A stretch of DNA of 43,320 nt from a virus (taxonomy: Duplodnaviria > Heunggongvirae > Uroviricota > Caudoviricetes): the IMG/VR virus record IMGVR_UViG_2541047798_000010, one strand, 5' to 3'. How positions within the stretch are numbered: position 1 is the stretch's first letter; the number at the start of each line of letters is the position of its first letter. Shown piece after piece: positions 3,361 to 41,875 of the stretch. The notes under the pieces were generated by a model. That model was given only the letters and a program-made list of their open reading frames with translations. It was not told the DNA's origin and made no database searches. Made by a program: the position numbers and the translations under genes.

Positions 3361-3386
3361 CCCGCAAAATATTGCGGGCTTTTTTT
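3361..3386. terminator. Hairpin overlapping the tailspike stop codon; U-tract is on the plus strand, orientation and function ambiguous
   Basis: Stem CCCGCAAAATATTGCGGG followed by CTTTTTTT on the plus strand. Confidence 0.35.
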
Positions 3387-7117: not shown

Positions 7118-7272
7118 TGCGTTAAGCACAGCTATATCCGAATTATGGTGGGCTGGGCAGGGGTCCGAAAGGACGCCGGTACCACTTAGGCCGGTACGCC
7201 AACCTTGTCCAGTTCACCACCAGTAATTGGCGTTGCGGTGGTGATTAAAATCACTAAGTGGAGATAACCACC

Positions 7273-7983
7273 ATGGCTAATGCTCAAACTGCCATCTTCA
7301 AATTTGAATCTGTTAACCCTATCCGTTCCATCATTATCGATGGCCAACCATGGTTTGTAGCCCAAGACGTTTGTAGTGCGCTGCGTATCCAAAACGTCAC
7401 CCAAGCACTTGAAAAACTGGATGATGATGAAAGGTCTATGTTCAACATAGGGCATGAACATCGTGCAATTTTTGACAGCCGAGTAAAAGAGATCAACATT
7501 ATCTCCGAGTCAGGCCTCTACACACTGATCCTCCGCTGCCGCGACGCAGTGACACCAGGCACTATCCCCTACCGCTTTCGTAAATGGGTTACAGGTGAGG
7601 TTCTTCCTCAGATCCGCCGCACCGGAAGTTACATTAAAAACTCGCTCCCGCAGGAAGAACGCATAAAGATGGTTGCCGACCAGGTAGCCAACGCCACAGC
7701 ATCAGCAGTGATGCAGGCAATGAAGATAGAGAACAAAACCTACAGCGCCCCGCTGAAGCCCGGCTACCGCAGCCTGATTCATTCGCCGTCTGGTGTTCTC
7801 GGCCTGACGGAGAACTCACTGCTGATGAATCTGCTGAACCAGTTACAGGAAGACGGGCACGATGTATCGGGCGCGGCGGCGGAGCTGACCACCATGTTTT
7901 GCTACATCGTTGGTGTGAGCAAATGCCTGCGTGATATCCAGACGCACGCGGAGTACATCAACGACAAGGCTGGGTTCTTCTGA
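7273..7983 (+). CDS. Antirepressor paralog 1 (Bro-N-like N-terminal domain plus shared C-terminal effector domain)
   Basis: 236 aa from ATG 7273 (RBS GGAG); N-terminal IFKFESVNPIRSIIIDGQPWFVAQDVCSAL is Bro-N/KilA-N-like; C-terminal half nearly identical to paralog 2. Confidence 0.8.
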   Translation: MANAQTAIFKFESVNPIRSIIIDGQPWFVAQDVCSALRIQNVTQALEKLDDDERSMFNIGHEHRAIFDSRVKEINIISESGLYTLILRCRDAVTPGTIPYRFRKWVTGEVLPQIRRTGSYIKNSLPQEERIKMVADQVANATASAVMQAMKIENKTYSAPLKPGYRSLIHSPSGVLGLTENSLLMNLLNQLQEDGHDVSGAAAELTTMFCYIVGVSKCLRDIQTHAEYINDKAGFF

Positions 7984-8107: not shown

Positions 8108-8140
8108 ATGAGAAAATTTGACGAGTACGAAGGCGTTTAA
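8108..8140 (+). other. 10-codon upstream ORF (MRKFDEYEGV) with strong RBS, followed by a terminator-like hairpin at 8161-8184; candidate attenuator leader for the cargo gene
   Basis: AGGAGG 7 nt upstream of ATG 8108; hairpin GGGGCC-ATTA-GGCCCC then GTTTTCAT; cargo start at 8200. Confidence 0.3.
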
Positions 8141-8199
8141 CATTCGGATAGTTTAATGACGGGGCCATTAGGCCCCGTTTTCATGTCTGGAGACAGTTT

Positions 8200-8994: not shown

Positions 8995-9017
8995 AAACAA
9001 GGCCGCGAAAGCGGCCT
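8991..9017 (-). terminator. Rho-independent terminator for ant2
   Basis: Minus-strand stem GGCCGC-TTTC-GCGGCC followed by TTGTTTTTAA, about 50 bp downstream of the ant2 stop. Confidence 0.55.
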
Positions 9018-9018
9018 G

Positions 9019-9030
9019 TGACATGTCACG
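9019..9030. repeat. 12-bp perfect palindrome GTGACATGTCAC (copy 1 of 3)
   Basis: Exact 12-mer also at 28175-28186 and 30629-30640. Confidence 0.6.
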
Positions 9031-9044
9031 ATAGTTTCGTTTTG

Positions 9045-9470
9045 CACATCCCTGTGCCGCCGTTCTGTCAGAAGAACCCTGCTTTGTCGTTGATATACTC
9101 CGCGTGGGTCTGGATATCACGCAGGCATTTGCTCACACCGACGATGTAGCAGAACATGGTGGTCAGCTCCGCCGCCGCGCCCGATACGTCGTGCCCGTCG
9201 TCCTGTAACTGGTTCAGCAGATTCATCAGCAGTGAGTTCTCCGTCAGGCCGAGAACACCAGACGGAGAATGAATCAGGCTGCGGTAGCCGGGCTTCAGCG
9301 GGGCACTGTAGATTTTGTTCTCTATCTTCATCGCCTGCATTACTGCTGACGCCGTGGCGTTGGCTACCTGGTCGGCAACCATCTTTATGCGTTCTTCCTG
9401 CGGGAGCGAGTTTTTAATGTAACTTCCGGTGCGGCGGATCTGAGGAAGTACTTCGCCTGTAACCCATTCA
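9045..9470. repeat. Right arm of the near-identical inverted repeat (3-prime half of ant2)
   Basis: Reverse complement matches 7585-8010. Confidence 0.8.
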
Positions 9471-9760
9471 AGAAATCTGAATGCTCTCGTTCCCTCAGTC
9501 ATTGCCTCTTTGCAACGCAGAATAAGGATGTAGAGACCTGATTCTGAAACGATGGATAGTTCTTGTATTCCACCAGGGGTCTGTATTGAATACAGCCCCT
9601 TTTTGTTCCAGCCTTTTTTATCAAGTTTTCTCGCTTGTGTAACATCAATATTCAAAGCATTGCACACATCTTTGGTGACAAACCAAGGTTCTCCGTCAAT
9701 CATGAACATACGGATCTGGCAGGATGACTCAAAGGAAAAGATGGAAGGTTTGGTATTCAT
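9068..9760 (-). CDS. Antirepressor paralog 2 (Bro-N-like N-terminal domain plus shared C-terminal effector domain), inverted relative to paralog 1
   Basis: 230 aa from ATG 9760 (RBS AGGTGA); N-terminal domain diverged from paralog 1, C-terminal about 130 aa near-identical. Confidence 0.8.
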   Translation of the reverse strand: MNTKPSIFSFESSCQIRMFMIDGEPWFVTKDVCNALNIDVTQARKLDKKGWNKKGLYSIQTPGGIQELSIVSESGLYILILRCKEAMTEGTRAFRFLEWVTGEVLPQIRRTGSYIKNSLPQEERIKMVADQVANATASAVMQAMKIENKIYSAPLKPGYRSLIHSPSGVLGLTENSLLMNLLNQLQDDGHDVSGAAAELTTMFCYIVGVSKCLRDIQTHAEYINDKAGFF

Positions 9761-10027
9761 GGCGATCACCTTTGTAGTTAGGTTAATCACCACCGCTGAG
9801 ACCAATCAGATGGTGGTGAACTGTGCAGAGTTGGTCTTACCGGCTACAAAGGAACCCGGCGCACCTTTCGGTGCCCCCACACAGCCCACCATAGAATAGG
9901 TGCGCTTTACACATAAAAAAACCGCTTATGCGGCATATGTGCCTCTGTAGTAATCCGGGAGACCAATCCCGGCACTGGATTTTGCCAGTGCCTGATTACT
10001 ATGGCACAAGAGGAGTGCGATGTAAAT

Positions 10028-10042
10028 TTACCGCAAAGGTAA
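10028..10042. promoter_or_regulatory. Operator-type palindrome TTACC-N5-GGTAA at the outer edge of the right ant arm
   Basis: TTACCGCAAAGGTAA; mirror of the 6989 copy, with the same downstream stem-loops and terminator in inverted orientation. Confidence 0.6.
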
Positions 10043-10065
10043 TGATAAACGCTAAGAAATATTAA

Positions 10066-10084
10066 AATCAACCATATTTGGTTA
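10066..10084. promoter_or_regulatory. Second palindromic motif ATCAACCAnATTTGGTTA (AACCA-N4-TGGTT), copy 1
   Basis: AATCAACCATATTTGGTTA; near-identical element at 36927-36945; degenerate AACCACATA versions at 6569, 27150 and 34987, each next to an operator-type site. Confidence 0.35.
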
Positions 10085-10189
10085 ATGCGTATAAAAGAGC
10101 CAGCAGCGAGAAATTGTGCCGCGACGTAAAATAACGAGCATCTGCTGGCTTACAACCAGCGATGTTTCAAATTTGTCACTATTATCAAC

Positions 10190-10543
10190 GTGCCATTCCA
10201 CGGCGCAGAGCTTTATGTTGTCAATCATAACGGCGAACCATACACCCCAATGAAACCTATCGTTGAAGGCATGGGTATGGATTGGGCTTCACAGTTTACG
10301 AAAATGAAGCAGCGGTTTAAAACCTGCATTGTGAAAATCACAATGCAGCTTCCTGGGGATGAACAGCGCCGTGAGATTATTTGTTTGGCACTTCGCAAAC
10401 TTGCTGGCTGGTTGCAAACCATCAGCCCTAACAAAGTCCGCCCTGAAATCCGCGAAAGTATTGAAACATCAACCGTATCGATATCGACACGGTTGATTAT
10501 GACGGTAACTTATTTCCGTGTGTCCTATTTCTCCCGCCACTAA
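10190..10543 (+). pseudogene. Possible gene remnant; ORF with GTG start and no RBS
   Basis: 117-aa track ORF; normal GC content, no ribosome-binding site, ends directly against the minus-strand AT-rich gene. Confidence 0.25.
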
Positions 10544-10840
10544 CTAATTATATTTGTCTTTAAAAATTTCATGGAATGATTGAGAGTAAGACTTGCCATA
10601 CTTCAAATAACATTCTTCATCCAACTTTCTTAATGAACTTCGAACCTGTTCGTGGCATACAGCAAAAAAAACAAGTCCGCCGCCTATTAATACCCCTATT
10701 GATATTGGGTTCGCAACATCCCATAAAAAATCGGCTAACAGAGCAAATACCCCACCGCCGCCAATAAATGCCCCTATAGCTCGGTTCGTTTTAGCTTGCT
10801 CATAGCGTCTCTCTAACTCACTAAACTCTTTAATATCCAT
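10544..10840 (-). CDS. Small two-TM membrane protein, AT-rich moron
   Basis: 98 aa from ATG 10840; two Gly-rich hydrophobic helices (GAFIGGGGVFALLADFLW and ISIGVLIGGGLVFFAV) with charged termini; low GC. Confidence 0.55.
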   Translation of the reverse strand: MDIKEFSELERRYEQAKTNRAIGAFIGGGGVFALLADFLWDVANPISIGVLIGGGLVFFAVCHEQVRSSLRKLDEECYLKYGKSYSQSFHEIFKDKYN

Positions 10841-10917
10841 ATAAGCACCTCTATAAAATTACTTCATCACCGGATCCACCTGGTTTATTAGTGGCGCAAT
10901 CCAGAACAGATGTTTTA

Positions 10918-11766
10918 TTATTGTGAAGTTTTCATTGCACGATTTTCAGCTCTGAATTCAAGAACCGTTTCAATATTTCTTTCCTTCAGCATATCCATAA
11001 CATTTTTATTCATTTGACTATCACTGGTTAATAACTGATAAACGTTTCTTTTCTCTTTATCAGAATTTTCTTTAACAGCTGATTTGCATGACAAATGCTT
11101 ATTGAAATTTTCTACATCGCTAGTACATGAATTTACGGCTGCGGATGAAATATCAGACGCTGAAGAAACACCGTCATCTAAACGTTTTATAGCATTTTCT
11201 ATACATGAGTTAAGGGAATAAACGACAACTGAGCGATACCCTTCAGACGCACACCATTCTAAATTTCTTGAAGGATCGAGTGGTTTTACTTCGCTGGATT
11301 GAATTAACTTGTCAAACACTGACTTATATTCAATCTGTTTTTTATCTATAGCCCATACCTCAGTAGCTGATTTATAATGCCCAGTATGCTTATTAACATC
11401 AAACCCATGTTTTATAAGCAAATCTGCCCATGAAAGATTTATTGATTCATTGTTATGAGGCCATTTCCCTGTCAGAACCGCCCCCATAGACCCCATATAT
11501 CCGCCATATGATGGTATAGCACCATGGCTCAATAACTTCTCAGCAACCACAGGGCAATTAATTACATAGGAGGCGTAAAGCCCATTCCATAAAGCCCCTC
11601 TATAGTAATCGCCGCGATTAGGTTCTTTTAAGTCGATAGCCTTTGATAATTGTTCACACGTTTTGCATGCATCAAAGTTATCCTTATTGCATTGCAATGA
11701 ACTGGCGGCTGTAGGATTTACAGCGACTATTGAAAGCACAATGCCAAACAAATTTATTTTTTTCAT
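10918..11766 (-). CDS. Secreted Cys-rich protein of unknown function, AT-rich moron (possible degenerate ankyrin-like repeats)
   Basis: 282 aa from ATG 11766; N-terminal signal peptide MKKINLFGIVLSIVAVNPTAASS; many Cys; segments such as ADLLIKHGFDVNKH resemble ankyrin repeat ends; low GC. Confidence 0.6.
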   Translation of the reverse strand: MKKINLFGIVLSIVAVNPTAASSLQCNKDNFDACKTCEQLSKAIDLKEPNRGDYYRGALWNGLYASYVINCPVVAEKLLSHGAIPSYGGYMGSMGAVLTGKWPHNNESINLSWADLLIKHGFDVNKHTGHYKSATEVWAIDKKQIEYKSVFDKLIQSSEVKPLDPSRNLEWCASEGYRSVVVYSLNSCIENAIKRLDDGVSSASDISSAAVNSCTSDVENFNKHLSCKSAVKENSDKEKRNVYQLLTSDSQMNKNVMDMLKERNIETVLEFRAENRAMKTSQ

Positions 11767-11767
11767 C

Positions 11768-14700
11768 CTATTTCATCTGCTCTTCAACTTTATTCAGTAA
11801 TGGTGATATCGCCCACAGGTTCTGAAAAGGTAGCATTTTACGGACCGCGTGGGTTTGCTGGCTGTCAAATTCTCCGTTAAGTACACCATTCGCAACCGTC
11901 GCGGCATCACCGCCAAGATCAAAGGTAGGACCAAGTAAAGCACCAATAGCATTACGACTCTGAAACCTTGATACCGGAGGCGCACCAAACATCGCGCCAA
12001 GACCAAACCTACCGCCGCTTATGTTCTCAACGGTATTCAGCGGCTCAGAGAGCCAGCCAAGCATTCCACCCCGGTCGATCCCCTCTTTCACAAGGTTATT
12101 CCAGCTGTAGTCGATATCGCGACCGCTTAACTTCTGTTTCATCATATAGACCATTGAGCCAAGCGCAATCGTGCCAAGCGCACCAAGATAGAATGCAGCA
12201 TCGCCCTGCTGGATACCAGATACCAGCACCCTGTTATGCTGTGCGAAGATAAACGTTTTGAACTGCGTGATCATCTTCCAGCCTTCTTTACTAAAAAACA
12301 GCGGTGTATCACCTACGCCAGGCGTTACAATCACTGAGTCTACATCTTTCAGCACTGCAGACTGGAAAATCTCTCTAGCGAAACGGTCATCCCACAGATG
12401 ACTATGCCCGGTTAACAGCCCGTCCATATCCTCTCCGTGCTTCCCGAATTGCTCCCCGATTCGGCGCAGAACATCTTCATTGATGCCGACCTGTGCCATC
12501 TTCCGCATTTCACTTTTGGAGAGCGTGCCACCAGCAGAAACTTGGCGAGCCGCGTCAAGTATCCTCGACTGCACTATCATCCCAGACCATGATTTAAGTG
12601 CGCTGTTCCACTGATTCATCAGCGTCCAGTTACCGAATTTCTGCGTCATCCAGTTCAGACCTCGCTCAGCGGCGCTTCTCCGGCTATAGGGGTCAGTAAG
12701 ATCCGCTATAGCCTTTGTACGCGTAGACAGGACATAATCAAGCCCAACTGCCATTTCTCGCAAATCCCTGGTTGCAATTTTCACTGAGTCCATATTTTTA
12801 AGCATGCTTACCATTGGTCCGAGAGATTTTCTCAGGCCATGCTGCATCATCGGTCGCATCAGATCAGTTGCAGCGGAGACGGTCATTCCACCAAGCAAAC
12901 GGAGGAAGTTAATATTCCTAGCAACTCGCCCGGCACGAACAAAGAAACTGCGTGGATCTTGAGGTGCACCGTAAGTACCAAGCAGTCGATCACGCATAGC
13001 CGTAATATCCCTAATATCAGCCTCCCGTTGCTTCTCAAGAACTGCACGTCGTTTAGGTGTTTTAGCCTCTTTTATTAGCCTGGTATATTCCTCACTAACC
13101 TGACGGATTTGCTCCCCCATATCTTTACGGCCAAACTGCGCAGTCAGCTCAATTTCTGGTGCCACCTGCCGGAGATAACTTTCCATGATGTAGTTAACAT
13201 CTGATTCAAGAAAATCTTCTATACGCTCATCAGGAATAAGCAGCGTTCGGCTTTTAGTGAAACCAGCCCGACCAACGAGTCTCTCTGGGATAATATCGGC
13301 TGGTACAAGCCCGGAAGGTGCGCCTATTATTTTATTCACGATCTCGTCAGCAGCGTCCTCTGCTTCCTCTCGGGATAGAGGCTCCATCTGCTTCAGTGCT
13401 CGCTCGCGGCTTGCATTCAGCCTTGTGGTTGAATTTGCCCGTTTTTGCAGTCGGCGAAGCTCAGAACGATATTTCCGTGGATTATCCAGCAACTCCATAT
13501 GGCGCTGATAGACAGGAAGCTCACTCTTTGCCTGCGCTATATCATCAAGGCGTGTTTTAAGGTCAGAGCTTTCTTTCATCATTCTTGCCTGAAGTTTTTC
13601 TGATGAAGTCTCGGCCAACTCTTTTTCTATTCTTGTAAGACGCGCCTGTGTGTCAGTCTCCTGAGATATAAGCTTATTTCGTTTATCCAGTTCTTCCATG
13701 AGTAGAATTTTTTTACCAGACCATTTCTCCGCTTCAGCGATTTCACTAGCGAGAGCATCAGCGCGCGGTGCTGATTCCTCTGCAGTTTTTAGCAATGAAT
13801 TTATCTTTTCAATTCGCTGACCTGCTTTGTCAGCACCTTTGGCACTAATCCCTTGTATCCAGTTGGCAATTCGCCCTCTGAATTCAGTGCGGTCGGAAAG
13901 TATCTTATCGAACTTATAAATGCGGGGAAGATAACTCTTCGCCGTCACGACATCGATATCCTCAGGAAGGATCCCCAATTCCTGCATACGGGCTTTTGTG
14001 GTCTCAAAAATGGGGCGGATTCTGGCGGCTGCTTGTGAAACCTCAGGAATATCACTCTGATCACCACGGCGCATAGCCATGCCAACAGCTTCATTGAAAT
14101 CAATAAAGTTCATCCTCTTCACGCCGCGGGCGCTGACAGATTTGCTGTACTGCTGGTAAGCATCACGAGTAGCTTCCATCTGCTTATAAAGCATGGCGTC
14201 GTATTGCTTAATCTTAGTCTCGACTGCCGTAAACGTAGCCAACCCCTCATCATTTTTGGCGAAGAAATAGTTATTTTCGGCAAGCTGCTGGTTAATCTGA
14301 CGGGAAACAAGAGATGGTGATTGCGCCAAGCGGCCAGCAGGAGTGACACTCAACGTTTTGTTAGCAAGTCCAAGTCCAGCAAGCTGTTCCTGATCGAGTG
14401 TGGTATTGAAAACCTGAGCTGCACCAATGCTTTGAGGAGAATCCATACCTCGCAAATGATTACCTACTGAGTTAACCACTGCCTCGCGCGCGCTAGGTCC
14501 AGCAAGTAGCTGTGCACCAGCACCAAGGATCCCACCAACGAGAGCATCAACAACAACGTTCGATACGCTCTCCATCGGTGAGCGAGCTTCCTGAGTGGCC
14601 TGCAATGCGGCCTCTGAAGCAACACTGCCAGCAGCATTGGCTAAAGCAAAACGTCCGGCTGTTTCTGCAATACGACCGCCACGAACGACAGCGCCGAACG

Positions 14701-27538: not shown

Positions 27539-27615
27539 GTGGCATTAGCTCAGTTGGACAGAGCAACCGCCTTCTAAGCGGTTGGTCGCAGGTTCGAATC
27601 CTGCATGCCACGCCA
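27539..27615 (+). tRNA. tRNA-Arg (anticodon UCU, reads AGA), phage-encoded
   Basis: 77-nt cloverleaf: acceptor GTGGCAT/ATGCCAC, D-stem GCTC/GAGC, anticodon stem ACCGC/GCGGT with loop CTTCTAA, T-arm GCAGG-TTCGAAT-CCTGC, discriminator G and encoded CCA; differs from host argU. Confidence 0.9.
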
Positions 27616-28260: not shown

Positions 28261-29736
28261 TTAAGCATAGGGATCGTAATCTGTAATGGCCTTGCCTTGC
28301 TGGTTCTGCTGACCTGGAATTCGCAGACGCTTCGACACAGGGAAAGCAAACGTCAGCAATAGCGCATCGCCTTTACCCGGCGAACGCCCAAGACGCTCTT
28401 TGATATCTTCCTTCGGTTCGATAACGATTTTACCGTCCACACGAACTTTGTACTCTGCCGCCGACAGGTCGTCTGCAGTTTCCTGGTCATCCAGCATGCC
28501 GCCCAGCCTCAGCCATGTCTTACATGAGTTGAACATCTCCCCACGCTTGTTAAGCATCTGCGGGTCAGTGGACGCACCGCCGAACGGAACAAGTTGCCAT
28601 GTACGTCCCCAGCCATCACCGATTGACTTCAGACCGGTTCCGTAACCGAAGTCGATGAACACCGCGTCAGCCTGGTACTGGTCTTCAAAGTCAGCGATAC
28701 GCTTCGCCATAATCAGATCGTCGGTGGTCTTGTTGCCGGTCCACAGCACCTTACTGTGCAGCCCCTGCCGCAGGTATATCACCGCGTCATCAACGCCTGA
28801 ATATGCCGGGTCAACACCGATTATCACCGGAGCATGTGCAACCTGCGCAGCGGTTACCACCCGTTTCATTGCCTCGTCAGTAAGACCGGTAGGGATAAAC
28901 TGCAATTCAGATGCATCAGGGAATATGCCACGCACACGGATTTTAACGAAGTCGCTATCTTCCCCGTAGTCATCAACCCATTTCTGCAACTGCTGTTTGT
29001 TGGTGCCTTCCACCGTCCTGCTGTCAATCTGCGCAGTTTTCCAGCGGTGTTTGTATTTGCGGAAACATTCACGGAAACGCCCGGTGTTACGTGTAGGGTT
29101 TCCGAAAGCCACCCAGATAATCTCAGTGTCTTCGTCCGTTAGCGCACCCTCGGCAACTTCCCACACCAGATCCGCAATGTTCGACGCTTCATCAAATACC
29201 ACGATGATGCGTTTACGCTCGTTGTGTAGTCCGGCGAATGCCTCAGTGTTGTGCTCAGACCAGGGGATTGCGTCAGCTCGCCACCGCTTGTCGTGCCCAG
29301 GGTCATTGCTGTACATCGCGGTAGCGGTACAGGTAAACCAGTCTTTCGTGATAGCAAGGTTTGACCACTTGATAATTTCCGGCCAGGTCTTCGTTCGTAG
29401 CTGGTTGTCGGTGTTGGCGGTCACCACGACCTTACAATCCTCGCAAGTGGACATGCCCCAGTTGGTCAGCATTGAGATGAATGCGGATTTACCAATACCG
29501 TGACCAGAAGCACGTGCCAGCATAAGCGGCTGATATCGCGTCTCTGGATTCTGCAGGTGATCACGTATCTCTCGGAACGCATCAGCCTGCCACTGACGTG
29601 GGCCGGTGGCATGTGCCAGTTCAGTCCCCTCTTCCCCCCATGGGAACGCATAGAGGGCATAGCCAAGCGGATCGTGAGTGAACCCTGCAATATCCTCGAT
29701 TAACTGCTCTTCAGGAGATAACGCTGTATCTGTCAC
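28261..29736 (-). CDS. terL: Terminase large subunit
   Basis: 491 aa; GTG start overlapping the terS stop (GTGA); Walker A-like GHGIGKS; C-terminal nuclease region. Confidence 0.9.
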   Translation of the reverse strand: MTDTALSPEEQLIEDIAGFTHDPLGYALYAFPWGEEGTELAHATGPRQWQADAFREIRDHLQNPETRYQPLMLARASGHGIGKSAFISMLTNWGMSTCEDCKVVVTANTDNQLRTKTWPEIIKWSNLAITKDWFTCTATAMYSNDPGHDKRWRADAIPWSEHNTEAFAGLHNERKRIIVVFDEASNIADLVWEVAEGALTDEDTEIIWVAFGNPTRNTGRFRECFRKYKHRWKTAQIDSRTVEGTNKQQLQKWVDDYGEDSDFVKIRVRGIFPDASELQFIPTGLTDEAMKRVVTAAQVAHAPVIIGVDPAYSGVDDAVIYLRQGLHSKVLWTGNKTTDDLIMAKRIADFEDQYQADAVFIDFGYGTGLKSIGDGWGRTWQLVPFGGASTDPQMLNKRGEMFNSCKTWLRLGGMLDDQETADDLSAAEYKVRVDGKIVIEPKEDIKERLGRSPGKGDALLLTFAFPVSKRLRIPGQQNQQGKAITDYDPYA

Positions 29737-30332
29737 TGATTGCCATCCTGACGTTCTTTCAGTCTCTTCCTGGCTGCCGCTATGCGATCAGCAATTGTCA
29801 CATTCACATTAACATCCAGGCGTTCTTTGAATGCGTTGACGTCGACGTGCTTACCAATCAGTTCGAGGTTCTTCACCTTGTCAGGCCATTTAATTTTTTT
29901 GAGGATGCCAACCAGCTCTTTCTCGTCTCCACGGCCTTCGAACATGTCGGCCAGTTCGAAACCTGTCAGGTACTGCCGCCAGACCTTAGGCCATTCCGAG
30001 ACCGGCTTGATGCTCATATCGTCGTTGAGAATGTCAATCACGTCCATCTGGTCGATCTCCACCAGGCGCATGAGAACGTAATCAGCACTGACGCGCATTC
30101 GTTTGTTGCGCTCCTCCATCAACTCGGCAATCCGTTTTTGAATGCGTTCATCGCGCATCATGACACTGGCTTTAACTGCCGCTGTATTTGGGGAGAATCC
30201 TGCGTTAATCGCAGCCTGAGTCTGGTTTTCAGGCGTTTGGATGTATGACTGGCAATAAGCCTCCTGCATTGCTGTTAGTGGCTTAAATTGCGTTGATTTG
30301 CGTTTATAGGTTTTAGGTTCAGCAGGCATCAT
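29733..30332 (-). CDS. terS: Terminase small subunit
   Basis: Start chosen at ATG 30332 (199 aa); the track's longer TTG-start ORF translates the operator-containing leader into an implausible TITTTVTITTVV N-terminus. Confidence 0.6.
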   Translation of the reverse strand: MMPAEPKTYKRKSTQFKPLTAMQEAYCQSYIQTPENQTQAAINAGFSPNTAAVKASVMMRDERIQKRIAELMEERNKRMRVSADYVLMRLVEIDQMDVIDILNDDMSIKPVSEWPKVWRQYLTGFELADMFEGRGDEKELVGILKKIKWPDKVKNLELIGKHVDVNAFKERLDVNVNVTIADRIAAARKRLKERQDGNQ

Positions 30333-30349
30333 AACCACCGTGGTAATAG

Positions 30350-30364
30350 TTACCGTTGTGGTAA
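30350..30364. promoter_or_regulatory. Operator-type palindrome TTACC-N5-GGTAA 18 bp upstream of terS
   Basis: TTACCGTTGTGGTAA, between a minus-strand terminator and the terS start. Confidence 0.6.
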
Positions 30365-30370
30365 TAGTAC

Positions 30371-30401
30371 CATGCAAAATAAAGCCGCCATAGTTGGCGG
30401 C
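30371..30401 (-). terminator. Rho-independent terminator separating the early operon from terS-terL
   Basis: Minus-strand stem GCCGCC-AACTAT-GGCGGC followed by TTTATTTTG. Confidence 0.5.
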
Positions 30402-30406
30402 AGTAT

Positions 30407-30619
30407 TCAAAGTCCATCAAATTCATCGTAAAAACTCTCGTCAAGATACCCTTCCCATTTACCGCGAATGAAAATTACATCCTCGCCGCAAGGGTGCTGA
30501 CTGTCGATAACTATATCCCTCCTGGCGCAACCATACTTATGCATGAGAAATTTAACCTCTTTCGGAAAATTTGCTGAGTTATCTCTCATATCTTCAAGGT
30601 CGTAGCGTATTTTTGGCAT
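30407..30619 (-). CDS. Small hypothetical protein
   Basis: 70 aa from ATG 30619 (RBS AAGG 6 nt upstream); the track's GTG start lies inside the 12-bp palindrome. Confidence 0.4.
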   Translation of the reverse strand: MPKIRYDLEDMRDNSANFPKEVKFLMHKYGCARRDIVIDSQHPCGEDVIFIRGKWEGYLDESFYDEFDGL

Positions 30620-30628
30620 AACACCTTC

Positions 30629-30640
30629 GTGACATGTCAC
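30629..30640. repeat. 12-bp perfect palindrome GTGACATGTCAC (copy 3 of 3)
   Basis: Overlaps the stop codon of the zinc-ribbon gene, 10 bp upstream of ATG 30619. Confidence 0.6.
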
Positions 30641-30975
30641 ACTATTAATTTCGTTTCATGCCAGCCTTTAGTCACCCAGCATTGCGAGTCACCATTACAC
30701 GGGCATGAATTAACGGGAACTCTCTCGCCGCACTTACCGCAAAGTTTTCTGCTGATCGATTTTATACGCCCGCGCACACGTGCATCATCCTGGCGGATCA
30801 GCAGCGCGATGTACTCGGCCATTTCATAGGGATCGTGACCAGGGCGCCGGGCGGCGCAGTTCCGCGCCAGCATTTCCTGCTCCTGCTTATCCAGCACCAG
30901 TTCAATTTTGCGCTCACCAGCGGCGGACTGCCGAGCGCGCTGCGCGGCTTTGCGTTCTGCGGGGGATTTAGCCAC
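30637..30975 (-). CDS. Zinc-ribbon protein (Cys cluster CGKCGERVPVNSCPCNGDSQC); candidate transcription regulator, start uncertain
   Basis: GTG 30975 chosen (GGAG 8 nt upstream); basic N-terminal region plus C-terminal Cys cluster; located just upstream of the terS operator. Confidence 0.45.
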   Translation of the reverse strand: MAKSPAERKAAQRARQSAAGERKIELVLDKQEQEMLARNCAARRPGHDPYEMAEYIALLIRQDDARVRGRIKSISRKLCGKCGERVPVNSCPCNGDSQCWVTKGWHETKLIV

Positions 30976-31090
30976 GAATCGCACTCCACGCCAGATTGAT
31001 TAATGACTCCCAGGCAATATAAACCAGGATACCAGCAGCCAGGCCGAAACCAATCACCATGGCATAAAGCAGAGCGTTGCGCTTGTTCAT
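30968..31090 (-). CDS. 40-aa hydrophobic micro-protein (MNKRNALLYAMVIGFGLAAGILVYIAWESLINLAWSAIRG), not in the ORF track
   Basis: ATG overlaps the upstream stop as TAATG (translational coupling); single predicted TM helix. Confidence 0.3.
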   Translation of the reverse strand: MNKRNALLYAMVIGFGLAAGILVYIAWESLINLAWSAIRG

Positions 31091-31923
31091 TACTTCGCCT
31101 CCTGCGGCGGTTCCGGTAGCGGCATCCAGTTGGTTACTCCATGCCATATACCAGTTAAGATTTCAAACCTTGGCTCTCTGCCTTTCTGTGTCTTGGCATA
31201 TTCATTTCTTGTATATACGCATTGTCTAACTGCATATCCATTCCATCCAATAACTGTTTGTCTGATTTCAGGCATTCGCTCACTACAGCTTATCCAACCA
31301 TCCGGAGTTACCGGAGAGTTGCCTGCCAGTCTACGCAAAACAGCCTTAACAGCCTCAATACGGTCATCATCGTAACTTTCTGCCGTATCTATGCGGTCGA
31401 GCATGATGATTGCGTTATCAATATCAGGATTGCCGGCCCACTCATTACCGCGATTGGATTCGGCAGCCTGGTTGCCGCGTACTGGTTGATTGTCGGCTTT
31501 ACCCAGTCTGTCGTCGCTGCATGAATGCCCTTCCAGCCAGGCCAATGCTTGTCGCATGAAATACGCAATATGTTTGCCGTGGTAATCGTCTTCATCGATG
31601 TGAAAAGCGATACTACGAATGTATTCAATTGCGTTTTCAATGGCCTCTAACGCTATCGGCGCTGGCGGGGCGATGCGTCCAAGCAACTTATTTACCTCTT
31701 TCGCCATCGCGTCATATTTATCTAAATGGCGATTAGCTTCTAAGCAGACTCGGCGCATCTGATCTGAGTTAACTCGTTTAACTGGATCTGCTTCCAGCGA
31801 TGCCAGAGCAATTCGTGCCAGTTCTTCCGCTTCTTCTGCTGGCAGTACAACGTTGCTACCAGGTCCGTATGTTTCGCGCCACTGCTTGATTGTCAGCAGT
31901 CGCTCTTTGGTTATAGTGGTCAT
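31090..31923 (-). CDS. DUF551-domain protein
   Basis: 277 aa; C-terminal WISCSERMPE...VTNWMPLPEPP signature typical of DUF551 phage proteins. Confidence 0.6.
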   Translation of the reverse strand: MTTITKERLLTIKQWRETYGPGSNVVLPAEEAEELARIALASLEADPVKRVNSDQMRRVCLEANRHLDKYDAMAKEVNKLLGRIAPPAPIALEAIENAIEYIRSIAFHIDEDDYHGKHIAYFMRQALAWLEGHSCSDDRLGKADNQPVRGNQAAESNRGNEWAGNPDIDNAIIMLDRIDTAESYDDDRIEAVKAVLRRLAGNSPVTPDGWISCSERMPEIRQTVIGWNGYAVRQCVYTRNEYAKTQKGREPRFEILTGIWHGVTNWMPLPEPPQEAK

Positions 31924-31933
31924 TTGTTAATCC

Positions 31934-32689
31934 TTAAACTGCTAGTTGCAATTGCATTTCAAATCGGTCGCGTTGTTCACAATACGCAAGAGAACCAGGG
32001 CTATTGTGTGCCTCAATCCGTTCTACCATTAATGCTGCTCGTGTCTCTTTACTTGCAGGTGCATAAGCCCCAGACCAGGCTTTATCAATACCGATGTTTC
32101 GAGCGACGTTCGTACTATCTGCGCTGGCTAAGGGTAATTTTGTGAATATCTGCGGATTTAACATGCGCAATCCATGTAGTTTCGCAACCGGCTGACCATA
32201 CTCATCAACAATGTGACGAATCAGGTCTTTCATTCTGGCTACCGCAAGAGTTGGGCGCTTTACGTCATAGTCGCCACAACTACCGATAGCCACTCGCGGA
32301 AACTCATTGCACAAATGAATAAATCGCTCGTCACTTTCATTCATGTGCCACACTGGAACGCCAGCTAGTTTTCCGTGAGGCCACTCATTCAGAAGCGCAT
32401 CATTTTCTTCCTCTCCGCCATCAATAACATCAGGGATAATGGCAAAATCGAATCCTGGGTGATTCTTCCAGCGAGCAACAAACTCGTAGTAATCGCTCCA
32501 GTCGATTTTGTTTTTGCCAGCTGCTTTCCAGGCGGTGAATGCACCGTTGTCCAGTGCGAACGACTGACAGTATTCAGCAGCGAGATTGATCTGGCCTGAA
32601 TGCGCAAAACTGATAAACGCATGTCGCCCTTTCCATGCTCTCATGGCGCACGTATCAGGAGTAATAGGCCCACCGTGATAGTGAATCAT
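31934..32689 (-). CDS. Truncated TGT-fold protein (tRNA-guanine transglycosylase superfamily, DpdA-like); candidate DNA 7-deazaguanine transglycosylase
   Basis: 251 aa from ATG 32689 (RBS AAGGAG 7 nt upstream); motif-level correspondence to TGT: ITPDTCAM vs VETPCFMP, ALDNGAF vs TDSGGFQ, RVAIGSCGDYD vs GYAVGGLAVGE, ADSTNVARN vs FDCVMPTRNARN; lacks the C-terminal zinc subdomain. Confidence 0.55.
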   Translation of the reverse strand: MIHYHGGPITPDTCAMRAWKGRHAFISFAHSGQINLAAEYCQSFALDNGAFTAWKAAGKNKIDWSDYYEFVARWKNHPGFDFAIIPDVIDGGEEENDALLNEWPHGKLAGVPVWHMNESDERFIHLCNEFPRVAIGSCGDYDVKRPTLAVARMKDLIRHIVDEYGQPVAKLHGLRMLNPQIFTKLPLASADSTNVARNIGIDKAWSGAYAPASKETRAALMVERIEAHNSPGSLAYCEQRDRFEMQLQLAV

Positions 32690-32690
32690 C

Positions 32691-33440
32691 TCACTCTCCT
32701 TTGATGCGAATGCCAGCGGCACGGGAATCATTCCATCGCTTTACTTCTTCACGAATTACGTCAATGCATTCTTTCGAATCCATTAGGTAATCTTCATCAA
32801 AAAGCCTTTCCTGTTCGTTTTCTATCGCAACAATGATTGCTTCAACTAACTTTTGTGCCTGAGAACCACTTTCTAACTCTGCAATGCGCTTCTCTGCGGC
32901 TTCCAGCTTCTCGCGCATATCGTCAACGTACTCGACCAGAGATCCGCCAGCAGGAATTTCGCACTCCTCGACCAGTTGGAAGTAGATATCAGCTGCGGCC
33001 CGTGTGTTGCTATGCCTAGCGTCGCCCATCTCACCTTCACGAAGAGCATCGCGTTCGGCGGTAAGATTGGCTATTTTGCTGTCTTTGCCTTCAAGCTCAA
33101 CGCGCAGCTTCCCTACCGTTAGCGCAATATCCTCGTTCTCCTGGTCGCGGCGTTTGATGTATTGCTGGTTTCTTTCCCGTTCATCCAGCAGTGCCAGCAC
33201 GGTAGCCGGGTTAGCCTCTGCTATGAATTCAGCGTTTGCATAAGCCTGAGCATCTGATTCAATCAGGCAGTTAACATGACATTCCGCAATCACGCCACCG
33301 GGTTCTCCTTTCCATTTTTGACAAACAAAAACTCCTGTTAAATTGCCGTGCTGGTTAACAGATGTATGCCCTACGATGTAGCTTCCTTTAGTTGCTTTCT
33401 CTGCCTTTTCACGCAGTGCCTGATAGTCAATCTTGCTCAC
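32691..33440 (-). CDS. Ead/Ea22-like early-region protein
   Basis: 249 aa; GTG start overlapping upstream stop (GTGA); N-terminus SKIDYQALREKAEKATKG and coiled-coil middle typical of Ea22-like proteins. Confidence 0.5.
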   Translation of the reverse strand: MSKIDYQALREKAEKATKGSYIVGHTSVNQHGNLTGVFVCQKWKGEPGGVIAECHVNCLIESDAQAYANAEFIAEANPATVLALLDERERNQQYIKRRDQENEDIALTVGKLRVELEGKDSKIANLTAERDALREGEMGDARHSNTRAAADIYFQLVEECEIPAGGSLVEYVDDMREKLEAAEKRIAELESGSQAQKLVEAIIVAIENEQERLFDEDYLMDSKECIDVIREEVKRWNDSRAAGIRIKGE

Positions 33441-33943
33441 TGGTTGCCTCCTTTGCGAAGCTGGTCGGCGAACAAACGTACACCAGACGCTTCACTGCGT
33501 AGAAACTTAACGGCATCATCAAAACCACCTCGTTCTGCGTCGTCTGCTCCGTTGTCGAGGTTATCTGCGTACATCTCTACCCCCTGCGCCCGTACTTCAG
33601 CCAGGAAAGCATCGGTGGCTGGGGGTTCGATATCGTTAATTTCAGGAAGAATCTCTTCCCATGTGGCGATATCGCCATTCAAATGCCATCCGGAAATTCC
33701 ACTGGAGTTATCCGCAACACTGCGAACGGCTTCAATAGTTTCGAGCATTACCGCACTCTCCGCCGCCAGCGCCGCGCATCTGGCTTCAAGTTCCGCAAAC
33801 TTATCAGCTACTGACTTCGGACCGTCTTCACCGCATGCCTGCATCATGGCTGTTTCCCATGCCCGCTCATTAGCCAGAGCAGCATCACAGAGACGTCGAG
33901 ATCTGTTCAGTTGCTCTTCAAGTTCTTCATAACTCGGTTTCAT
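33437..33943 (-). CDS. Hypothetical acidic early-region protein
   Basis: 168 aa; RBS GAGGG 6 nt upstream of ATG 33943. Confidence 0.45.
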   Translation of the reverse strand: MKPSYEELEEQLNRSRRLCDAALANERAWETAMMQACGEDGPKSVADKFAELEARCAALAAESAVMLETIEAVRSVADNSSGISGWHLNGDIATWEEILPEINDIEPPATDAFLAEVRAQGVEMYADNLDNGADDAERGGFDDAVKFLRSEASGVRLFADQLRKGGNQ

Positions 33944-34004
33944 CTTTACCCTCGCTTATCCACATAACTTATTGATTACATTGATAACTAAAAAGATCGT
34001 CGAT

Positions 34005-34613
34005 TCATGCCGATCTATTTTTCATCAGTGATTCATAAAACTTTTGCCACTTATGCCGACCGAAATTAGCCTTCGAGTTACAGCTCGAACAAAGGCAAAT
34101 AAGGTTCTCCTGACGACAGTCTTGCTTGTCGTAATTGATGTGATGAGTTGTTAGCCTTTTGTCTGTTCCATCACAACCTGGGTTCTGACAAGTAAAACCA
34201 TCTCGCTCAATAACCCTCTTGCTCGTTTCTCGGAAATCCCACGGATACGGCAATCTCGATAATCCACCAGACCAGTTTGGATTTCCTTCCCCCTTCATCA
34301 GAGAAGAACGCATTATGTTGGAACACTGTTTCGAGCAGCATTTATGACGCTTCTCATGACTCAAGAAAACGGAGAACGAAGATCCGCATACGCAGCATAT
34401 TTTTAATACTCGCTTTAGTTCCCGATTTACCGTCTTGCCTCGCTGTGAAATTCCTACACACTGAAGTGAGCAGAACCTTGAAGATGAGTTGGCTCGCTTA
34501 ACCTGATATTGCCTGCCACATACGGAACAAACCTTTTCGATTTTCCCACCCTTCCAATTCGGGTTTTTATCACCGGATACAATCAATCCCGCAGCATTGG
34601 GCTTCTCGCTCAT
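34005..34613 (-). CDS. HNH homing-type endonuclease with N-terminal zinc-ribbon repeats
   Basis: 202 aa; HNH motif TTHHINYDKQDCRQENLICLCSSCN; repeated CxxC pairs; AT-rich codon usage unlike flanking genes. Confidence 0.8.
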   Translation of the reverse strand: MSEKPNAAGLIVSGDKNPNWKGGKIEKVCSVCGRQYQVKRANSSSRFCSLQCVGISQRGKTVNRELKRVLKICCVCGSSFSVFLSHEKRHKCCSKQCSNIMRSSLMKGEGNPNWSGGLSRLPYPWDFRETSKRVIERDGFTCQNPGCDGTDKRLTTHHINYDKQDCRQENLICLCSSCNSKANFGRHKWQKFYESLMKNRSA

Positions 34614-34963
34614 AGTTCCTCAACCTCCCATCCACCACCGAGCTTTTTAGGTTTTGGATAAGCAACCTGAAAGACAAACGGATAGCTGTCTGCCGCAACC
34701 TTCATCTTGACTCTCGCATCGTCAGTAAAGACTGACTTACTTCCCTTAACGTCCACCATCACCAACTGCCCGTCAGCCAACATCACGGCAAAATCTACAG
34801 TCAGGAAGCAGTTGTCAGCTAACCGCAGCTTGATACCCTCGAATCGATACCAGGCGATTTCCCCTGCACGTTTACGCTGCTCAAGGTGCTGGCAATACGC
34901 AGATTCTGTTTTGTTCATCTGGCCTGTTTTGAGTCGACCAAGAGCCTGTATCTGTTTTCTCAT
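34610..34963 (-). CDS. DUF1064-like protein (putative PD-(D/E)xK-type nuclease)
   Basis: 117 aa; motif pattern TESAYCQHL...YRFEGIKL...TVDFAVMLADGQLVMVDVKG; operator-type site overlaps its RBS. Confidence 0.5.
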   Translation of the reverse strand: MRKQIQALGRLKTGQMNKTESAYCQHLEQRKRAGEIAWYRFEGIKLRLADNCFLTVDFAVMLADGQLVMVDVKGSKSVFTDDARVKMKVAADSYPFVFQVAYPKPKKLGGGWEVEEL

Positions 34964-34966
34964 GAT

Positions 34967-34981
34967 TTACCCCTGAGGTAA
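34967..34981. promoter_or_regulatory. Operator-type palindrome TTACC-N5-GGTAA overlapping the RBS of the 34610-34963 gene
   Basis: TTACCCCTGAGGTAA, 4 bp from the start codon. Confidence 0.55.
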
Positions 34982-35028
34982 TTAAAAACCACATAAGACA
35001 CGAAATCAATAGATTTTAGAATATTTTA

Positions 35029-35043
35029 TTACCCAACAGGTAA
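35029..35043. promoter_or_regulatory. Operator-type palindrome TTACC-N5-GGTAA, second copy in the intergenic region downstream of the P-like gene
   Basis: TTACCCAACAGGTAA; a promoter-like TTGATT-N17-TTTAAT (minus strand) lies between the two sites. Confidence 0.55.
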
Positions 35044-35080
35044 TCATCGAGACGTAAAAAAATGCGCTATCGCGCTGGTA

Positions 35081-35863
35081 TTACTTGATAAATCCTGCCG
35101 CCTTTCCCCGCCTGTATTCCTCCATCAGCCACTGCGCCGGTGTTATTCCCCCCAGGGTGGCGGCGTTAGGCATGCACCCGAAACTTCGCCCTGGTGGATG
35201 GTAAACGTCTCTCCCTGTATCCGGAGGTGTACTCATGGGTTCTGGCTTTGCCTGTATGCTGATCACCGGATCGGGTATCTGCTGTCCGGAAGCCACCTTT
35301 TTCGCCCAATCATCGAGCAGCCTGCGCGCGTGTTTCTCAACCTCAATCTCGCTAAGCTGGCGCTGATACATTGCACGGCGGGTATCACATACGACCCAGT
35401 ACATAACCGGATGTCGCCACGGGAATCTTTCGGGACCACCAGGATATAAACTTTTTTCCTTGCTGTACCGGTGAAACTCCGCCATCACATCGTCAATGGT
35501 GACGCCAAGAACCATCTTGCTGTCTTTACACCACTTGATAAATTGCCCTGGCGACGGCCAGAACGGAGATTCACTGGCGCGGGCGTGGCGCATACCAGCG
35601 TTAACCTGTTCCATTGTTGTGATCCCATTCTCCAGAAACGCAAGCATCCATTGTTTTCGAAATTCGTTTAGCTTTCCTTGCTCGCTGATAGCAGCGATGC
35701 TGCCTGGAAATGCAGCCTGTAACTGGACAAACATTTCGTTGAAAATTCTTGCAACCTGCTCCTTCTTTGCCCTTTCATCGTCAGCAGAAGCAACCGCCGT
35801 CGAGTGGTCATGCCCACCACGAAAGCGATCGTACTCATTAAGAAGTTCTGGAGTTGATTTCAT
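35081..35863 (-). CDS. Replication protein P-like (helicase loader)
   Basis: Start chosen at ATG 35863 (RBS GAGGTG); segment RKQWMLAFLENGITTMEQVNAGMRHARASESPFWPSPGQFIKWCKD closely matches lambda P (RQWVLAFRENGITTMEQVNAGMRVARRQNRPFLPSPGQFVAWCRE). Confidence 0.85.
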   Translation of the reverse strand: MKSTPELLNEYDRFRGGHDHSTAVASADDERAKKEQVARIFNEMFVQLQAAFPGSIAAISEQGKLNEFRKQWMLAFLENGITTMEQVNAGMRHARASESPFWPSPGQFIKWCKDSKMVLGVTIDDVMAEFHRYSKEKSLYPGGPERFPWRHPVMYWVVCDTRRAMYQRQLSEIEVEKHARRLLDDWAKKVASGQQIPDPVISIQAKPEPMSTPPDTGRDVYHPPGRSFGCMPNAATLGGITPAQWLMEEYRRGKAAGFIK

Positions 35864-36653
35864 CCCACACCTCATCTATCCAGTCAGTGTTATGCCAGTC
35901 AAGGCTCTTTCTGACTTCACCTGATTTCTGTCTACAGAACTGGATGCGCCTTGCCAGCTTCTGCTCCCACTGTGCCTGATGGTATGCCTTACCCTCAGCC
36001 ATCCAGTAAATTCTGAACTCTGCAAGTTCCTGTGCCGTTGGCAGACTGTCCAGGTAGATTCCCTGCAATGAGCTTTTCCGAAGAAAGTCATCTGATGGCT
36101 GCCATTGTTCATGCATGACAAATTTGCCTAATTGCCCTGGCCCACCAGGAGGAACAAAGTTATTCATCACGGCGTTGTTTGCGCCGGGGTCATGAGGCAC
36201 AGAATCCCCGGTTTTTGTCCTGCTCTCCCTCTCTTGGTTAAATGACTGGTTATATGACTGGTTCTGGATCCCGTTTTTGGGATCATTCAACATCCCGTTT
36301 TTGGGATCATTCAACATCCCGTTTTCGGGAACATTACCGTTTTCGGGTTCATTACACCCTTCTAGGTTGCCTTTAATGTTCCCGTTTTTGGTTATATTAA
36401 GAGAGAAAACCCGCACTCTTTTTGTCGCTCCCTTTCTCTCTCCGGTATCTGAAATAAGCCCCATTTTCATGAGCGATATAAGCCCGGCCTGCACGGTTTT
36501 TTTATTCAGGCAAGTGTCTTTAACGAGGCGTTCTATGCTGGGGTAGCAGAGGTTATATTCATCGGCTCTGTCAGCCATCGAGAGCAGTATGAGCTTTAAT
36601 GATGAGCTACCTGGATCTGTCTCCCAGGCCCAATCTGTTGCATGTCTGCTCAT
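35838..36653 (-). CDS. Replication initiator O-like protein containing the origin iterons
   Basis: 271 aa; RBS GGAG; N-terminal HTH-like domain; repetitive linker NDPKNGMLNDPKNG encoded by the iteron DNA; directly upstream of the P-like gene. Confidence 0.65.
   Translation of the reverse strand: MSRHATDWAWETDPGSSSLKLILLSMADRADEYNLCYPSIERLVKDTCLNKKTVQAGLISLMKMGLISDTGERKGATKRVRVFSLNITKNGNIKGNLEGCNEPENGNVPENGMLNDPKNGMLNDPKNGIQNQSYNQSFNQERESRTKTGDSVPHDPGANNAVMNNFVPPGGPGQLGKFVMHEQWQPSDDFLRKSSLQGIYLDSLPTAQELAEFRIYWMAEGKAYHQAQWEQKLARRIQFCRQKSGEVRKSLDWHNTDWIDEVWDEINSRTS
36267..36395. repeat. Origin-type iteron array inside the O-like gene
   Basis: Two exact 24-bp direct repeats (CATCCCGTTTTTGGGATCATTCAA, first copy starts GATCC) plus 2-3 degenerate copies with core CCCGTTTT(T/C)GG. 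Confidence 0.6.
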
Positions 36654-40932: not shown

Positions 40933-41232
40933 GTGAGAAAGTTAAGCCGACTTGAAAAATATCACATGAATAAGGTTTCAATGCGCAGTCCGTCAAAGAT
41001 TGTCGCCGTTACTCCTGCGGCGATAGAGATCGAAAAACGCGCGATTGAAAGAGAGAAAAAAGGGCAATTCCGCATTGCCGCTCACCTTTGGCTTCAGTGT
41101 ATGGATGTTGCTTCTGGTGATGTTGAACGTGCAAGGATCGCGGTTCGCAGGGACCAATGTATCACAAAAGGTAACGGCCTTCGCCGTGGCGACTATAGCG
41201 GCATAGGATGTTGTGGGGTGGTTTATGACTAA
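40933..41232 (+). CDS. Hypothetical protein, start uncertain (GTG 40933 or ATG 40966)
   Basis: 99-aa track ORF; stop overlaps the methyltransferase start region. Confidence 0.35.
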   Translation: MRKLSRLEKYHMNKVSMRSPSKIVAVTPAAIEIEKRAIEREKKGQFRIAAHLWLQCMDVASGDVERARIAVRRDQCITKGNGLRRGDYSGIGCCGVVYD

Positions 41233-41875
41233 GAAATACACACTAATCTATGCAGATCCACCCTGGGTATACCGGGACAAAGCCGCAGATGGTAATCGCG
41301 GTGCCGGTTTTAAATATCCGGTTATGAGTGTGCTGGATATCTGCCGCCTTCCTGTGTGGGATTTGGCCGATGAAAACTGTCTGTTGGCCATGTGGTGGGT
41401 GCCAACACAACCACTCGAAGCACTAAAAGTTGTTGAAGCCTGGGGATTCCGTCTGATGACGATGAAGGGCTTCACGTGGATAAAATGTGGTAGTCGACAA
41501 CCAGATAAACTGGTTATGGGTATGGGACACATGACTCGCGCCAATAGTGAAGATTGCCTGTTTGCGGTAAAGGGAAAACTACCTACGCGCATTAATGCAG
41601 GGATCGTTCAGTCATTTACCGCACCGCGGCTTGAGCATTCAAGAAAGCCAGATATCGTTCGTGAAAAACTTGTGCAATTATTAGGCGATGTTTCTCGCAT
41701 TGAACTGTTCGCCCGCCAGACGTCTCATGGCTTTGATGTTTGGGGTAATCAGTGCGAAGACCCGGCAGTGCAACTACACCCTGGATACGCGTTGGATATT
41801 GGCGGATTAACAAATGCATTCAGCAATGCTCCGCTGTCACCAACAGACATCCAGGGGCGGGAGCGTGCTGCATGA
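41225..41875 (+). CDS. MT-A70-family DNA N6-adenine methyltransferase (orphan)
   Basis: 216 aa from ATG 41225; catalytic DPPW motif in YTLIYADPPWVY; no adjacent restriction endonuclease gene. Confidence 0.8.
   Translation: MTKKYTLIYADPPWVYRDKAADGNRGAGFKYPVMSVLDICRLPVWDLADENCLLAMWWVPTQPLEALKVVEAWGFRLMTMKGFTWIKCGSRQPDKLVMGMGHMTRANSEDCLFAVKGKLPTRINAGIVQSFTAPRLEHSRKPDIVREKLVQLLGDVSRIELFARQTSHGFDVWGNQCEDPAVQLHPGYALDIGGLTNAFSNAPLSPTDIQGRERAA

Follow-up and report, generated by a model that had tools for sequence, protein, structure and literature searches.

The DNA analysed here is a stretch of 43,320 nucleotides from a virus of the Caudoviricetes (IMGVR_UViG_2541047798_000010; hereafter the window). 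It represents a temperate E. coli prophage of the epsilon15/phiV10-like podovirus type. Its closest relatives are phages phiv142-3, vB_EcoP_PAS61 and TL-2011b (~97% identity across 70-74% of the 23 kb tested). The early operon is carried on the minus strand and contains, in order, genes for a replication initiator, a lambda-P-like helicase loader, a DUF1064/resolvase-like protein and an HNH endonuclease, two Ea22-like genes, the dpdA-like gene that is the subject of this analysis, a DUF551 gene, a regulator, a small ORF, and the gene for the small terminase subunit; the large terminase subunit gene comes next on this strand. TL-2011b has no dpdA-like gene at the equivalent position, which makes the gene an accessory cassette of a mosaic early region. 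The mosaicism extends to the HNH and DUF1064 genes (202 and 117 aa; the latter Holliday-junction-resolvase-like), since their position between the replication and Ea22-like genes is taken by other genes in TL-2011b. The coordinates of all features are given in the Table.

Table. Features of the 43,320-nt window, by position.
Feature	Position	Strand	Evidence or remark
171-aa ORF	1..516	plus	full-length match to phrog_1277 'DNA methyltransferase', E 5e-111
Low-GC stretch	3385..6504	minus	GC 0.40-0.45, against ~0.50 elsewhere
Ant-like anti-repressor gene	7258..7983	plus	paralogous to the next Ant-like gene, ~1 kb away
Ant-like anti-repressor gene	9068..9805	minus	opposite orientation to the first
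Low-GC stretch	10000..12000		GC 0.40-0.45, against ~0.50 elsewhere
tRNA-Arg (anticodon TCT)	27539..27615	plus	strand opposite to the structural genes; between head genes and large terminase subunit gene
Early operon	29733..36653	minus	Pfam and PHROGs matches, tight gene junctions
dpdA-like gene	31934..32689	minus	251 aa plus stop; predicted compact (beta/alpha)8 barrel of the TGT superfamily; no zinc subdomain
D191 codon, SADST	32117..32119	minus	predicted nucleophile; corresponds to 9g D215, S. Montevideo DpdA D256, E. coli Tgt D264
H172 codon, KLHGLR	32174..32176	minus	invariant; aligned to 9g His196
D87 codon, IPDVI	32429..32431	minus	candidate base-recognition Asp; compare S. Montevideo DpdA D130, 9g D114, E. 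coli Tgt D143
D47 codon, LDNGAF	32549..32551	minus	predicted general acid/base; corresponds to 9g D72, S. Montevideo DpdA D95, E. coli Tgt D89
Ribosome binding site AAGGAG	32696..32701	minus	direct sequence reading; 6-nt spacer to the ATG at 32689; inside the 3' end of the Ead/Ea22 gene
HNH endonuclease and DUF1064 genes	34005..34963	minus	
MT-A70 family DNA methyltransferase gene	41213..41875	plus	Pfam PF05063, E 2.8e-22; TL-2011b homolog annotated as DNA methyltransferase

The 251-codon reading frame had been pointed out in an earlier note on this DNA, without its strand; it is real and lies on the minus strand. A mechanical list of ORFs gives a longer version, which runs from the first ATG at 32731 to 31934 and would encode 265 aa. 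This start was rejected in favour of the ATG at 32689 on three grounds: the N-termini of close homologs, all of which start with MIHYHGG and have ~250 aa; the ribosome binding site; and the upstream stop codon, that of the Ead/Ea22 gene (32693-32691), which finishes 1 nt ahead of the ATG. On the other side, the DUF551 gene starts 10 nt past the dpdA-like stop. Directly beside the gene on its own strand, neither a promoter-like nor a terminator-like site was found. The tight junctions with the Ead/Ea22 and DUF551 genes indicate that it is a member of the operon, not a free-standing moron, and it is translationally coupled within the early operon of the prophage.

Comparison with the ortholog in phage SPN3UB (pS 0.72, pN 0.046) gives a dN/dS of ~0.02-0.06, a value that indicates strong purifying selection on the dpdA-like gene. 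Its homologs form at least 7,845 clusters at 90% identity, and an exhaustive search yielded 1,546 clusters at 50% identity, mostly of ~250 aa. Homolog clusters and dN/dS together argue against a chance ORF.

Several other features of the window are recorded here in their own right. The MT-A70 methylase that the earlier note had placed at 41225-41875 is real, its ORF being at 41213-41875. It is a separate gene on the strand opposite to the dpdA-like gene; that it might form a second layer of modification was the proposal of that note, and the link between the two genes is putative. The ORF at the left end of the window was considered as a third modification gene and rejected, as its sequence resembles the outer-membrane lipoprotein SlyB (PDB 7OJF, E 4e-10) and TraT. 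Its PHROG label is thus probably wrong; the ORF looks like a lipoprotein moron, possibly with a role in exclusion or serum resistance. The two low-GC stretches coincide with a 1,039-aa tailspike and a 282-aa phrog_6118 protein, and probably represent modules, for host range or of the moron type, that are exchanged horizontally. The window also has a pair of paralogous Ant-like anti-repressor genes and a tRNA gene.

Among the routine annotation searches, the sole positive for the dpdA-like protein was phrog_887, 'queuine tRNA-ribosyltransferase' (E 1e-102). There was no match in Pfam or NCBIfam at E values up to 10, and none in PADLOC, including its DpdA model. A phmmer search of the PDB was empty, and the matches of two family profiles there were all at chance level and included no TGT or DpdA chain. 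Foldseek against the PDB, run with a first structural model (pLDDT 75), found generic TIM barrels only, and hhalign of the family profile against the single sequence of E. coli Tgt gave no signal (0.65% probability). The negatives from Pfam, the PDB and PADLOC do not count against membership of the DpdA family, because the validated DpdA of phage 9g fails likewise: it is missed by Pfam and by HMMER searches of the PDB, and is found only marginally by the PADLOC DpdA model (E 0.02).

The relationship becomes apparent when the 9g protein itself is used for comparison. BLASTP of the dpdA-like protein against 9g DpdA gives an E value of 3e-7, and tblastn of the window with 9g DpdA matches the dpdA-like ORF only (E 3.8e-5). 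Profile-profile comparison (hhalign) of a shallow profile with a 15-sequence alignment of the 9g family gave 95.6% probability (E 1.1e-8); with a deep family profile of 54 diverse sequences, down to 32% identity, the match rose to 99.0% (E 9.5e-18, 172 columns). The deeper alignment also lifted the AlphaFold model from a pLDDT of 74.7 to 91.7, and the improved model has a complete eight-stranded barrel, the TGT-like (beta/alpha)8 fold expected of a phage DpdA. By sequence comparison, then, the dpdA-like protein belongs to the DpdA/TGT superfamily.

This placement bears out the kinship with TGT and DpdA that the earlier note had claimed from motifs, by means of the 99% profile-profile match to the 9g family and the invariance of the predicted catalytic residues. 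The motifs quoted in that note are present in the translation (FALDNGAF, with D47, and SADSTNVARN, with D191), its E. coli Tgt motifs TDSGGFQ and FDCVMPTRNARNG agree with the Tgt sequence, and the zinc subdomain is absent as it said, with no CxCxxC motif in the protein. The profile and structure comparison that it had proposed came out on the DpdA side: there is a profile match to the 9g DpdA family and an eight-stranded barrel, but no match to TGT in Pfam, NCBIfam, the PDB profile searches, Foldseek or the hhalign comparison with E. coli Tgt.

Five residues (D47, H172, S189, D191 and S192) are invariant among the 54 diverse sequences, and at least 90% of them keep P86-D87. D47 aligns with 9g D72 by both BLASTP and hhalign; in the model it is the last residue of strand 43-47, and an aromatic residue, F51, follows at +4. 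D191 aligns with 9g D215 and falls within strand 189-192 of the model; only ~60 residues follow it. In the model, each of D47, H172 and D191 is located either within a barrel strand or at its C-terminal end. The assignment of D87 as the base-recognition Asp is plausible, as the residue is just past strand 80-84 in the model, but the BLASTP and hhalign alignments are out of register here by 3-4 residues and pair 9g D114 with D90/G91. The overall D-D-H-D spacing, 47/87/172/191, mirrors that of 9g DpdA, 72/114/196/215. The roles of D47 and D191 are those assigned to D95 (general acid/base) and D256 (nucleophile) of the S. Montevideo DpdA (PMC10164549). The His196 signature, which H172 matches, sets DpdA1-type proteins apart from DpdA2, which lacks it (Hutinet et al., 2019; PMC6884629).

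The resemblance to 9g DpdA, a member of the DpdA1 subfamily from the Queuovirinae for which insertion of preQ0 into DNA has been shown, extends to the motifs LD[NS]GAF, K[LV]HG and S[AC]DS[ST] at near-identical spacing, and to the lack of a zinc motif in both proteins. The two differ in that the window protein is only ~22% identical to 9g DpdA, has 251 aa against 317, and lacks the N-terminal ~25 residues and much of the C-terminal tail. They differ also in genetic setting: the gene for 9g DpdA belongs to a folE-queD-queC-queE cluster (with Gat-QueC), and its product modifies ~25-30% of G, whereas the window gene is an orphan. The difference from the bacterial Dpd system is greater. S. Montevideo DpdA (PDB 7UI4), of the Dpd restriction-modification island, has 413 aa and four insertions, binds structural zinc at a CXCX2CX22H site and depends on a ParB-like ATPase, DpdB, as its partner (PMC10164549); the window protein has none of these. 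Neither that zinc site nor the large Ins8 insertion (PMC10164549) was found in the window protein. Beside the gene there is no DpdB, DpdC or DpdD-K; its neighbours are the Ea22-like, DUF551, HNH and replication genes.

The PHROG and GenBank label would make the protein a tRNA-guanine transglycosylase, which could alter queuosine-family tRNA modification and so tune translation during infection. We regard this as very unlikely. The zinc subdomain and the tRNA-binding insertions of TGT are missing, E. coli Tgt (with its CxCxxC zinc motif at residue 302) is ~125 residues longer, and the protein has no significant sequence or profile similarity to the Tgt/ArcTGT family (PF01702), as seen in the absence of Pfam and NCBIfam TGT matches and of any hhalign signal to E. 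coli Tgt. The tRNA-Arg(TCT) of the window lacks a GUN anticodon and is thus no TGT-type substrate, and E. coli has its own Tgt. The 'queuine tRNA-ribosyltransferase' label appears to have been inherited through annotation.

A transglycosylase of the DpdA type would need a supply of 7-deazaguanine. The earlier note had reported that the window is without folE, queD, queE and queC, and tblastn with the 9g FolE, QueD, Gat-QueC and QueE proteins gave the same answer (all E > 1); the precursor must therefore be made by the host. The E. coli host has the full queuosine pathway (PMC6884629), of which queA and tgt were observed here. The hosts of the gamma-proteobacterial phages that carry DpdA without precursor genes have the full queuosine pathway (Hutinet et al., 2019; PMC6884629), and 9g DpdA expressed alone in E. 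coli produces 790 dPreQ0 per 10^6 nt from the host pool (PMC6884629).

On balance, we think it probable that the protein is a stand-alone, catalytically competent DNA-guanine transglycosylase of the DpdA type, which is expressed early and uses 7-deazaguanine made by the host. The enzyme would be expressed from the prophage early operon alongside the replication genes. [quoted passage not shown] Resolution of the intermediate by a 7-deazaguanine would complete the double displacement. The incoming base would be supplied by the queuosine pathway of E. coli and would most likely be preQ0, or possibly preQ1 or an ADG/CDG derivative. The expected outcome is a post-replicative modification of phage DNA that is sparse and probably restricted to certain sequences, and that may blunt some restriction enzymes. 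What the analysis shows is the ORF in its operon, its homology to validated DpdA, the fold, the conserved catalytic residues, the purifying selection and the lack of que genes; that DNA is the substrate, which base is inserted, how densely, and to what benefit are inferred.

The window gene is not new as a type: it belongs to the DpdA-only phages catalogued in 2019, when a third group of 76 phages was described that have DpdA and lack precursor genes (Hutinet et al., 2019; PMC6884629). Entries in Supplementary Data 1 of that study include SPN3UB (YP_007011024), SfI, HK106, SEN1, BTP1, PEAT2 and 7-11. Identity to the window protein is 92% for SPN3UB, 68% for SfI, 36% for HK106, 37% for SEN1, 40% for PEAT2 and 36% for 7-11. 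The homologs in DpdA-only phages resemble the window protein in size (~230-265 aa) and in being single genes without que genes. The window copy differs in its carrier, as epsilon15/phiV10-like podovirus prophages do not appear in the parts of the published list that were searched, where TL-2011b too is absent. The gamma-proteobacterial singleton DpdAs cluster apart from the others, have possibly diverged in function, and have a modification status that is hard to predict (PMC6884629). A literature search found no later experimental work on the prophage singleton DpdA clade. The question left by Hutinet et al. (2019) is whether DpdA-only phages modify DNA to a meaningful extent, and with which base.

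Two DpdA-only phages bear on this question. Virion DNA of 7-11, the only measured member of this gamma-proteobacterial clade, contains 50 +/- 2 dADG per 10^6 nt, ~0.02% of G (Hutinet et al., 2019; PMC6884629), or by our arithmetic about nine modified bases per genome. In mycobacteriophage Orion, which has a singleton DpdA and a host without the preQ0 pathway, no modification was detected (PMC6884629). The Orion result, together with the lack of the gene in a relative as close as TL-2011b, is what one might expect if the protein were a non-catalytic remnant or a structural passenger with no transglycosylase activity. We consider such a role extremely unlikely. The Orion negative is explained by the missing host pathway, dN/dS is ~0.02, the predicted catalytic residues are invariant in more than 50 diverse sequences, and the family is large and uniform in length.

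By analogy with 7-11, the density of modification in the window phage is likely to be low. Strong protection from restriction is doubtful when 7-11 carries only ~50 dADG per million nucleotides, and the 'two layers of anti-restriction' that the earlier note saw in the dpdA-like and MT-A70 genes may be an overstatement. The chemistry could be the same and its purpose different: a few site-specific marks that serve as a self-mark, as a regulatory or packaging signal, as protection of critical sites, or as a decoy for defences that sense modification. This is possible, although we would not expect it. Besides the sparse marks of 7-11, it would fit the placement of singleton DpdAs in clusters of their own, with possible functional divergence (Hutinet et al., 2019), and the spread of the family through temperate phages of several architectures under strict conservation, from which a real selective benefit can be argued despite the low density. 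But the clade has provided no evidence of site specificity, and the low level in 7-11 could reflect limiting host precursor or growth conditions. Even sparse marks would be costly, since the modification-dependent systems GrwAB and Dag1 target deazaguanine DNA.

The wider family provides further hints of a connection with deazaguanine and DNA modification. A 24-kb metagenomic phage contig has a single ORF (P0389; L015 2840-3847) in which a QueD domain (PTPS, E 1.2e-24) is fused to a DpdA-like domain; the QueD half retains CSNLHGH, and the DpdA half matches 9g DpdA (E 3e-8). No QueC, QueE or FolE was found within the 11.8 kb of this contig that were examined, so that over this span QueD alone accompanies DpdA and the pathway is incomplete. 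In a second fusion (P0362, 421 aa), the partner is an N6-adenine methyltransferase of the Dam type (D12 class), and the DpdA-like domain is missing its first ~37 residues. This may be a genuine bifunctional DNA modifier, or a deletion may have brought two neighbouring genes together. A third (P0386), to a baseplate GPD domain, was set aside as a probable artefact of gene calling or assembly.

In Rhizobium phage RHph_X2_30 (L017), the DpdA-like gene (8995-9684) lies downstream of a PF02592 gene (7985-8515), with two small genes in between. We take the PF02592 protein to be of the YhhQ family, a putative preQ0/preQ1 transporter. YhhQ is described as a transporter specific for preQ0 (Hutinet et al., 2019; PMC6884629), and the gene pair suggests that this phage imports the precursor instead of making it. 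A link to precursor supply is thus found for the dpdA-like gene in the host pathway and, in other family members, in the QueD fusion and the YhhQ-type neighbour.

Other neighbourhoods are varied. In P2-like prophages the homolog abuts the replication gene A; one of these copies has a C5 DNA methylase gene close by, with just a 64-aa ORF in between. In lambdoid phages it follows the O/DnaC replication genes or lies between the recombination genes and xis/int. In Pantoea phage AH07 (L010 3682-5004), a gene for a 440-aa ParB-HTH protein overlaps by 4 nt the start of a homolog that is 89% identical to the window protein. A conserved ParB/DpdB-like partner was considered for this reason and dropped, as the AH07 gene fails the PADLOC DpdB model and there is no such gene in the window or in the other contexts. 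No partner gene is conserved across the sampled contexts of DpdA-like homologs, and the QueD, YhhQ and methyltransferase associations, each a single instance, are suggestive but carry no statistical weight.

These contexts bear also on a reading in which the protein does not act on nucleic acid. Cap10 of type IV CBASS (PDB 9NTN), whose partners in a bacterial defence operon are Cap9 and a CD-NTase, binds protein-linked 7-amido-7-deazaguanine. A phage protein of this kind might bind or transfer 7-deazaguanine that is carried by another protein or by a small molecule; it could, for instance, serve counter-defence by intercepting a deazaguanylated CD-NTase (type IV CBASS, QatC-type). Such a role seems to us very unlikely. 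The detectable sequence kinship of the window protein is with phage DpdA; it is 9% identical to Cap10, with no sequence-level relationship and no PDB sequence match, and the rank that Cap10 obtained is probably due to both proteins being minimal TGT barrels. No Cap9 (QueC-like) or CD-NTase gene was found in the window operon or in eight sampled contexts, PADLOC has no match for the protein, and the fusions in the family are to QueD and Dam, none to defence proteins.

The allele of the dpdA-like gene, at 95% nucleotide identity or more, is present in 204 of the 5,426 complete E. coli genomes (~4%), with five copies on plasmids; that of E. coli IAI39 is 99.2% identical. The RefSeq rows listed for it all read 'hypothetical protein' (e.g., NC_011750.1 2782489-2783244), and no Pfam, NCBIfam or PADLOC model picks up either it or the validated 9g DpdA. 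The interest that remains lies in this annotation gap in E. coli genomes and in the function of orphan DpdAs. One may speculate, with little confidence, that orphan DpdAs of temperate phages do not provide bulk anti-restriction at all, and that they place a few site-specific marks or, like Cap10, have a target other than nucleic acid. If true, this would be a widespread and unrecognised epigenetic or counter-defence function, since ~4% of the complete E. coli genomes have this allele and the family comprises over 1,500 clusters at 50% identity. An active enzyme would mean that, with no more than one 0.75-kb gene, a temperate phage can exploit the tRNA-modification pathway of its host to alter its own DNA chemically. 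Such an activity would be relevant to evasion of restriction, to sensitivity to modification-dependent defences, such as the GmrSD-like GrwAB and the Dag glycosylases, and to sequencing and cloning artefacts in prophage DNA.
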